DNA from: Escherichia coli
GTDB lineage: Bacteria; Pseudomonadota; Gammaproteobacteria; Enterobacterales; Enterobacteriaceae
Assembly: GCF_003334335.1 (NCBI RefSeq)
Contig: NZ_QOWQ01000123.1
DNA: 1,077 nt
Strand: one strand, 5' to 3'
Each line of letters opens with the position of its first letter. Position 1 is the stretch's first letter. Under the pieces are notes generated by a model. The model had not been told where the DNA came from. It searched no databases and was given only the letters and a program-made list of their open reading frames with translations. The translations under genes and the position numbers were made by a program. Below are positions 1 through 1,077 of this stretch, piece by piece.

Positions 1-344
1 TATGACCACGCATCGGTACGTAACAGATATCCGCTACCTGTGAAATGAATCCATTCTGATTCACCAACGTCACTGGTCTGATGCGACAGCGAGTACAGCC
101 AGGCGTTATCCTTTTCCGTGATATGTGCGGTACTGCAGCGTATGCCGGCAAGGGTTGCAAACGGTGGTAGTGTGCAGGTTGACTGTTGGTCGGATTCCTC
201 CACCACGCGGAGTGAATAACCGTTTTCAGCGACCTTGTTAATCAGTTCAGTGAGATTAACACCATCGACGTCAACGACAATTCGCCCCATGTTCAGTGCC
301 TGCACATTAATTCTGTCGGCTTCCAGCATCAGGGAAAGTTTCAT
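1..344 (-). CDS. Small protein downstream of the toxin, probable YeeW/DUF5983-like; 3'-partial (runs off the window at position 1)
   Basis: ATG at 344..342 overlaps the toxin TGA (minus-strand ...AAACGATGAAAC...). I translated the frame by hand and it stays open for 114 codons to the window edge: [114 protein letters not shown]... A GGAG Shine-Dalgarno lies 5 nt upstream of the ATG. It is absent from the supplied ORF track, presumably because no stop falls inside the window. The family assignment is from recollection of conserved synteny (cbeA-cbtA-yeeW), not from recognising the sequence itself. Confidence 0.6.
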
Positions 345-715
345 CGTTTCTCCGGATGCTTACCCAGGGTAATGTTATTTACCGTTCTGTAATTGTCGCG
401 GGTCATCAGGCCGGTCGCCCGGCGAGCCCGGAGGATATCAATACTGTTTATTAACTGAGAGCGGGGACAAGTGCTGAATCCCGGCTGGTCGGTACGCACC
501 AGCGCGTATTTTTCCACGAGAAAATTCACCGCATCACACAGTGAAATGCCAGCTTCAATATGCTGCTCAATCACACGTTCATCGGCGAACGGTGTGTCAT
601 TCAGTGTAAGGCCGTAATGCTGGCCCAGTAGTCGGGAGAGCAGAGTCTGCCAGATGGTGACGGGAGACGGGCAGCTCGATGCCTCCCGTACGTGTGTATC
701 GGGTAATGTTTTCAT
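341..715 (-). CDS. cbtA: Type IV toxin, CbtA/YeeV (YpjF/YkfI) family, complete 124 aa
   Basis: Complete ORF with ATG at 715..713 and TGA at 343..341. The translation carries the conserved core I recognise from E. coli CbtA paralogs ([57 protein letters not shown]...[34 protein letters not shown]). It sits immediately downstream of a YeeU-family antitoxin on the same strand, which is the canonical gene order. The symbol is family-level; the N-terminus ([26 protein letters not shown]) may be closer to the ypjF-type paralog. Confidence 0.93.
350..353 (-). promoter_or_regulatory. Shine-Dalgarno (GGAG) for the downstream gene, embedded in the last codons of the toxin
   Basis: Minus-strand GGAGAAACGATG: GGAG followed by a 5-nt spacer and the ATG at 344..342. 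The position inside the upstream CDS together with the ATGA overlap indicates translational coupling. Confidence 0.5.
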
Positions 716-804
716 ACTGAAGGTTTTCCTGATATGCAGAGATGAAAAATGGAAAAGTGGCGTGGTGAAAGCACCAGGCCGGAGCAGAAGGTTATTCCGG
801 TGGT
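716..804. other. 89-bp antitoxin-toxin intergenic spacer
   Basis: Non-coding on the gene strand between the antitoxin TAA (807..805) and the toxin ATG (715..713). It contains short inverted repeats (ccgga/tccgg at 779..783 and 796..800; tggtg/cacca at 763..767 and 772..776) and an A/T-rich tract at 741..757. Confidence 0.5.
727..730 (-). promoter_or_regulatory. Putative weak Shine-Dalgarno (AGGA) for the toxin
   Basis: Minus-strand CAGGAAAACCTTCAGTATG: AGGA with an ~11-nt spacer to the toxin ATG at 715..713. The spacing is longer than optimal, consistent with modest toxin translation. Confidence 0.35.
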
Positions 805-1077
805 TTACTTTTTCGTTTCGGGCGTCGGATAAACAGCCAGATAAACGTAACCACAGGAGCCGAGGGTGTCAGCTTTGCAGGTCAGACCTTTTGCATACAG
901 CGTGACGGTATGCTGATGGCGGGGATTCAGTTCACCGCTGGTGAGCATGAGTTCCAGTTGTTTCATCAGCAGCGGAAAGGCCTGGTCCAGGTGGTACGCA
1001 TCTGCATCGCTGAACAGGCCTCTGATACCGGCGCGGTCGGCAAGGTAATGCAGGCGGTTACCCTCCTGCACCAGACG
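805..1077 (-). CDS. cbeA: Type IV antitoxin, YeeU/CbeA (YfjZ/YafW) family; 5'-partial, N-terminus lies beyond position 1077
   Basis: The minus-strand frame is open from the window edge (codons [90 protein letters not shown]) to a TAA stop at 807..805. From memory this matches the C-terminal ~90 residues of E. coli YeeU-family antitoxins (~122 aa) almost residue for residue. The 'M' at 1071 in the ORF track is an internal GTG (Val) codon, not the true start. The symbol is family-level; the exact paralog (yeeU/yfjZ/yafW-like) cannot be resolved without alignment. Confidence 0.92.

Follow-up and report, generated by a model that had tools for sequence, protein, structure and literature searches.

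Which kind of DNA does this stretch of an Escherichia coli genome belong to, and what might its genes do there? The window (the whole stretch analysed, 1,077 nt) has every gene on the minus strand and contains the following features.

1–344, minus strand: 5′ part (first 114 of 162 codons) of a DUF5983/yeeW-family gene; Pfam PF25638 (5.5e-29) and PF19419 (4.9e-08).
341–715, minus strand: complete cbtA/yeeV-family toxin gene, 124 aa plus stop; Pfam PF06755 (E 1.1e-61, full model, 1–112 of 112).
716–804, minus strand: spacer of 89 nt between the antitoxin and toxin genes, with the ribosome-binding region before the cbtA ATG; from sequence.
805–1077, minus strand: 3′ part (C-terminal 90 codons plus stop) of a cbeA/yeeU-family type IV antitoxin gene; Pfam PF06154 (E 2e-44).
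855–865, no strand: cluster of substitutions, a probable short gene-conversion tract; from comparison with the closest alleles and the serX paralogue.

The window is a CbeA/CbtA toxin–antitoxin pair together with its usual downstream gene, an ordinary and already described arrangement. The first-pass annotation had identified yeeU, yeeV and yeeW, and the Pfam families confirm all three. About 32 N-terminal codons of cbeA fall past the right edge of the window. The antitoxin is annotated as YeeU-family antitoxin/CbeA in every E. coli match, and a full-length CbeA relative matches the solved YeeU structure (PDB 2H28, 3.7e-76), while the DUF5983 protein has no PDB relative by sequence. The stop codon of cbtA and the start codon of the DUF5983 gene share the ATGA at 341–344. 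NCBIfam yielded no family for CbeA, CbtA or the DUF5983 protein. None of the three matches a family in the PADLOC defence models, and therefore no claim of a defence system is made. Plus-strand open reading frames of 32–83 aa were rejected as antisense artefacts, because the minus-strand genes fill the window and have very strong Pfam support.

The spacer shows little sign of an additional element. An Rfam scan of the window, spacer included, gave no match at E values up to 1, and a promoter scan of the window found none, with two terminator-like matches at chance level. The predicted folding of the 89-nt spacer is unremarkable (z −1.67). Moreover, the spacer is mostly deleted in the serX paralogue, indicating that it is not strongly constrained.

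Base composition provides little guidance on the origin of the window. Its GC content is 52.4% versus 53.4% for core coding sequence (43 core genes), and its GC3 is 57.6% versus 60.0% for pooled core codons and a mean of 60.9 (sd 6.2) for size-matched core chunks. The codon-usage score lies in the lowest 4.4% of such chunks, and the whole leuX island described below has a GC content of 48.7%. The composition of the window is close to that of its host and is uninformative as an island signal.

Sequences related to the window are widespread in the species. A megablast search against 5,426 complete E. coli genomes detected 13,731 places in 4,937 genomes (91%), of which 13,724 are chromosomal and 7 are on plasmids. 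The copy-bearing genomes contain 1–14 copies each (median 3), and the other 489 genomes have no megablast-detectable copy. Only 380 records match the window at 99% or above; none is identical to it, and the best E. coli matches reach 99.5%. Near-core GC content and codon usage, together with the presence of at least one copy in so many complete genomes, would fit an ordinary toxin–antitoxin locus inherited vertically with the core genome and belonging to no mobile element. Such an origin is nevertheless highly improbable, as the copy number ranges from 0 to 14 per genome, and the near-identical copies described below occupy different tRNA sites and come with an empty site, direct repeats and an integrase.

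Instead, the window is very probably part of the conserved terminal module of a tRNA-integrated island carrying a tyrosine integrase, of the CP4-44-like/pathogenicity-island type known from E. coli and its relatives; we infer its membership from homologous contexts. Six near-identical copies were sampled, three at leuX and three at pheV, all in islands of ~75 kb, and one leuX island and one pheV island were followed through to the tyrosine integrase beside the tRNA gene. In all six copies, a duplicate of the tRNA 3′ end is located 0.8–1.1 kb beyond the left edge of the window. The terminal modules of the leuX and pheV islands of CV839-06, O26 RM10386, G1/2 and S1-KEN-03-A are 99.4–99.5% identical to the window in DNA over all 1,077 bases. 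They are identical to it over the whole toxin gene and over the part of the DUF5983 gene that it contains, but lack its five substitutions at 855–865.

In CV839-06, the window homologue is preceded by genes for a GTPase, Ag43, IrmA, DUF905, DUF932, antirestriction, JAB/RadC and DUF987 proteins, and is followed by DUF957 and then a DUF4942 fragment. The island cargo includes IS elements, fec and capU/virK, among others. Approximately 75 kb upstream of the homologue, a tyrosine integrase gene adjoins tRNA-Leu(CAA), namely leuX, beside ahr. The 3′ end of leuX and its downstream flank are repeated at L001:19088-19170, ~0.8 kb left of the window homologue, and this repeat at the far end delimits an island of ~77.5 kb bounded by direct repeats. 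The repeat region (L001:19060-19200) contains the unit GAAGGTGC three times in tandem, with ~50 nt of the leuX downstream flank duplicated. In addition, an HNH endonuclease gene and phosphorothioate-dependent restriction gene fragments lie between the leuX repeat and a truncated nanS. This distal leuX region may be left over from an earlier island in this position.

In G1/2, the same 99.5% allele is located in an island of ~74.5 kb, which ends in an integrase beside pheV and carries aerobactin (iuc), SigA, Ag43-type autotransporter and sialic-acid genes. The far end of the island is marked by a remnant, 23 nt from the 3′ end of tRNA-Phe, which lies between yghD and DUF4942 and 1,131 bp to the left of the window homologue. 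This distal remnant reads TGGTGCC-GGACTCGGAATCGAA and carries a 1-nt deletion, owing to which it was missed by an ungapped search allowing up to three mismatches and was found with a shorter pattern. It lies at the same distance of 1,131 bp in the pheV/yghD loci L004, L017 and L019 and in the pheU/cadC locus L012, placing the island boundary 1.13 kb downstream of the window in the examined pheV/pheU contexts free of IS insertions. The kps/pheV loci L013 and L016 likewise end in this remnant, with a greater distance in L013, where DUF4942 contains an IS21 insertion. Among these E. coli loci, pheV and pheU sites share an identical sequence on the island side of the remnant, whereas the outer sequence is specific to each site. 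In K-12, pheV and yghD are separated by only 148 bp, which represents the empty site, versus ~74.5 kb in G1/2.

An integrase beside a tRNA gene (leuX and pheV; intA is also near ssrA in CP4-57), a tRNA 3′-end repeat at the far end (leuX and tRNA-Phe) and presence/absence polymorphism are therefore all found in the nearest relatives. The Ag43 and antirestriction genes expected as neighbours from the window alone are likewise present there. The island would have arrived by site-specific integration.

The module keeps its position at other sites. In all 13 related contexts, it occupies one end of an accessory element and comes after DUF932, antirestriction, RadC/JAB and DUF987 genes, and the shared order reads DUF932, KlcA/ArdB-type antirestriction, RadC/JAB, DUF987, CbeA, CbtA, DUF5983, DUF957 and DUF4942. 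This agrees with the first-pass proposal of a cassette ordered radC-like, DUF987, yeeU, yeeV and yeeW, the first two genes lying outside the window and directly upstream in every related locus. More distant copies are found at element ends at pheU/cadC (98.6% identity), at kps/pheV (94%) and at ileX next to mug (88%), and the serX copy of O157:H7 (86%) has the same order at an element end. The K-12 copies are 89% (CP4-44) and ~70% identical (CP4-6 at thrW and CP4-57 at ssrA). At serX, ileX and thrW, the cassette is situated right beside an intact tRNA gene (L014:9693-9930, L015:10531-10705 and L006:4872-5670), while at leuX, pheV, pheU and ssrA it occupies the end far from the tRNA gene and integrase. 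The cassette marks an element terminus in both the tRNA-side and the far-side arrangements.

Homology between copies at different sites begins ~500–570 bp left of the window and extends at least 2.5 kb to its right. The exception is K-12 CP4-44, for which homology begins about 196–198 bases inside the window. Apart from this case, homology is unbroken across the window, so that no breakpoint lies within it, in line with the earlier remark that no element boundaries are visible there.

The cbeA-cbtA-yeeW genes of K-12 CP4-44 (b2004–b2006) share the gene order and orientation of the window, and the upstream yeeS (RadC/JAB) and yeeT (DUF987) are arranged as in the relatives of the window. The spacer measures 88 nt in CP4-44 (PMC5371832) versus ~89 nt here, both CbtA proteins have 124 aa, and DNA identity amounts to 89% over 196–1077. 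However, yeeW is 195 nt long in CP4-44 versus 489 nt in the relatives of the window, and CP4-44 possesses neither an integrase nor an adjacent tRNA gene (K-12 record; PMC5371832), which indicates that some copies reside in decayed, immobile remnants. The YkfI/YafW (CP4-6, thrW) and YpjF/YfjZ (CP4-57, ssrA) pairs of K-12 belong to the same Pfam families as the window proteins. Their elements also have the same upstream antirestriction, RadC/JAB and DUF987 genes and the same element-end position (K-12 records; PMC5371832). Nevertheless, these two divergent pairs match the window at ~70% DNA identity and over parts only, have a spacer of 20 nt (PMC5371832) and are not followed by a DUF5983 gene.

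K-12 records annotate these three paralogous elements as "cryptic prophage CP4-44/CP4-6/CP4-57", and the first-pass annotation had accordingly placed the window in a horizontally acquired island or cryptic prophage. The island part of this claim is upheld by the repeats, integrase and empty site in relatives, whereas the prophage part is weak as a description, phage matches being nearly absent. A true cryptic prophage would be a decayed P4-like satellite or temperate phage that had lost its virion and lysis genes, the toxin–antitoxin pair being of phage descent. The elements have been called P4-like, and CP4-6 and CP4-57 still excise (PMC5371832). The islands also carry a tyrosine integrase, an AlpA-type HTH protein, YfjI and "inovirus Gp2 family" proteins. 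On the other hand, no capsid, tail, terminase or lysis gene is annotated in the ~150 kb of two islands followed end to end, and the cargo (fec, iuc, sigA, Ag43 and kps) is typical of pathogenicity islands. CbtA and the C-terminus of the DUF5983 protein have weak PHROG matches (6e-10 and 8e-07, respectively), but CbeA has no PHROG family. Similarly, an exact 39-mer occurs in five predicted proviruses of IMG/VR, yet this database comprises 2.9 million viral contigs. Two of the five loci were examined. One has a flank that runs as far as dacD, a core gene, suggesting that the provirus was called beyond its true end, and the other neighbours a recombinase and a Dam methylase gene; neither is therefore evidence of a phage origin. 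Among 50,697 phage records, a single unannotated one of 3,236 bp matches, at 84% identity. Taken together, a prophage origin is unlikely, though the element may descend remotely from a satellite phage.

The matching phage record, OR844783.1, is named "Escherichia phage ECO111 5-P" and aligns with the window over its full length at 84% identity; it probably represents island DNA of the host and not the genome of a phage. Since sequenced phages almost entirely lack this sequence, "integrative island" fits the element better than "prophage", and a better name is "integrative genomic island with a P4-family integrase".

Some neighbouring genes raise the question of a plasmid source, for instance a conjugative plasmid's leading or establishment region. 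Plasmid leading regions also have genes for DUF932 and DUF905 proteins. KlcA-type antirestriction genes are found in such regions as well (PMC11541004), and 61 of 72,556 PLSDB records match the window, 33 of them typed as conjugative. But the plasmid share of the E. coli places (7 of 13,731) is minute, and, apart from a record of 4.9 Mb, plasmid matches stay at or below 92% identity. The best "plasmid" matches are chromosome-sized or carry rpoD, dnaG or kps genes, and are therefore regarded as mislabelled chromosomal DNA. A plasmid can hardly be the source of the window, and this origin was rejected, two of the "plasmid" contexts carrying chromosomal genes. The PLSDB records NZ_MG591698.1 (L015), NZ_LR890315.1 (L016) and NZ_CP134663.1 carry rpoD, dnaG, mug or kps genes or measure 4.9 Mb, and are apparently mislabelled chromosome. 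In one of them, mcr-1.1 is located within 10 kb of the cassette.

The island reading leaves one feature peculiar to the window. All five mismatches to the 99.5% alleles cluster within 11 bp of cbeA (855–865), and the serX-island paralogue of O157:H7 has exactly the same patch. On the coding strand, four of the five are synonymous, AGC to TCC (Ser) being among them, and one replaces Gly with Cys. The patch is probably a short gene-conversion tract derived from a paralogous island copy, spanning 11 bp at minimum and 824–870 at maximum. A 35-mer over the unique patch has no exact match in species-representative genomes or JGI metagenomes. For the 71-nt patch region, no complete E. coli genome exceeds 95.8% over the full length, and the mosaic is absent from all of them. 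Island copies would exchange sequence by recombination.

The toxin DNA of the window is identical to the gene encoding WP_000854753.1, and the protein is 88% identical to K-12 CbtA. The K-12 toxin contacts FtsZ and MreB separately, blocking both division and elongation, and CbtA, YkfI and YpjF all require F65 to interact with FtsZ (PMC5624674). Specifically, F65S breaks the FtsZ contact of K-12 CbtA, and R15C weakens its binding to MreB (PMC5624674). CbeA neutralises the toxin not by binding it but by binding, bundling and stabilising FtsZ and MreB filaments (PMC5624674), and the YkfI/YafW and YpjF/YfjZ pairs behave similarly to CbtA/CbeA (PMC5371832). FtsZ/MreB toxicity and its neutralisation in the absence of toxin–antitoxin binding are known only for K-12 proteins (PMC5624674, PMC5371832).

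A full-length toxin domain, an upstream antitoxin gene on the same strand and F65, which is kept in an alignment with K-12 CbtA, place the window pair in the CbtA/CbeA type IV group. Judged by sequence, we infer that this CbtA allele would be toxic and neutralised as in K-12. The two CbtA proteins differ in N-terminal residues 6–11 and at residue 15: codon 15 of cbtA in the window (671–673, minus strand) encodes Cys, versus Arg in K-12 CbtA. Cys15 is the natural residue of YkfI and YpjF.

Deletion of toxin or antitoxin genes alters oxidative-stress resistance and early biofilm formation (PMC5371832), and the predicted CbeA/CbtA pair may help to retain the island or act in stress or biofilm physiology. 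In strain MLI121, the pheV/kps copy (L013:12808-13870) has a cbeA gene interrupted by an internal stop, while its annotation gives cbtA as intact. Between DUF987 and cbeA, this locus has a further pseudogene, annotated as "antitoxin of toxin-antitoxin stability system". This arrangement suggests that other copies provide the antitoxin in trans.

The third gene of the module is 162 codons long in island relatives (L001:19856-20344), while K-12 yeeW is cut to 64 aa. In each of the 11 CP4-44-type contexts examined, cbtA is followed by a DUF5983 gene, which is shortened in K-12. Its constant position downstream of CbtA has been reported (PMC10790755), and the association of DUF5983 with CbtA has been noted elsewhere (bioRxiv 10.64898/2026.06.09.728211). 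The gene, which follows the CbeA/CbtA operon, is probably translationally coupled. From the ATGA overlap with the cbtA stop and the constant co-occurrence in CP4-44-type contexts, one might propose that DUF5983/YeeW is a working third partner, such as a second neutraliser or a regulator of CbtA. This proposal is doubtful, however, as K-12 tolerates a shortened yeeW and the YkfI and YpjF pairs have no such gene, both of which argue against an essential role. Were it correct, the CP4-44-type locus would count as a tripartite system and not just as a pair.

Earlier papers have described the link between yeeP-to-yeeV genes and islands at pheU, pheV and selC, as well as the variable copy number of CbtA and the constant presence of DUF5983 downstream (PMC6174562, PMC7371111, PMC10790755), and the present finding is known biology rather than novel. 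The window should be labelled as accessory island DNA with a type IV toxin–antitoxin pair, which has little import beyond correct annotation. As a multi-copy, recombining cassette, the module calls for caution in read mapping, assembly and allele typing. Its conservation also makes it a practical marker for the ends of tRNA-integrated islands in E. coli.
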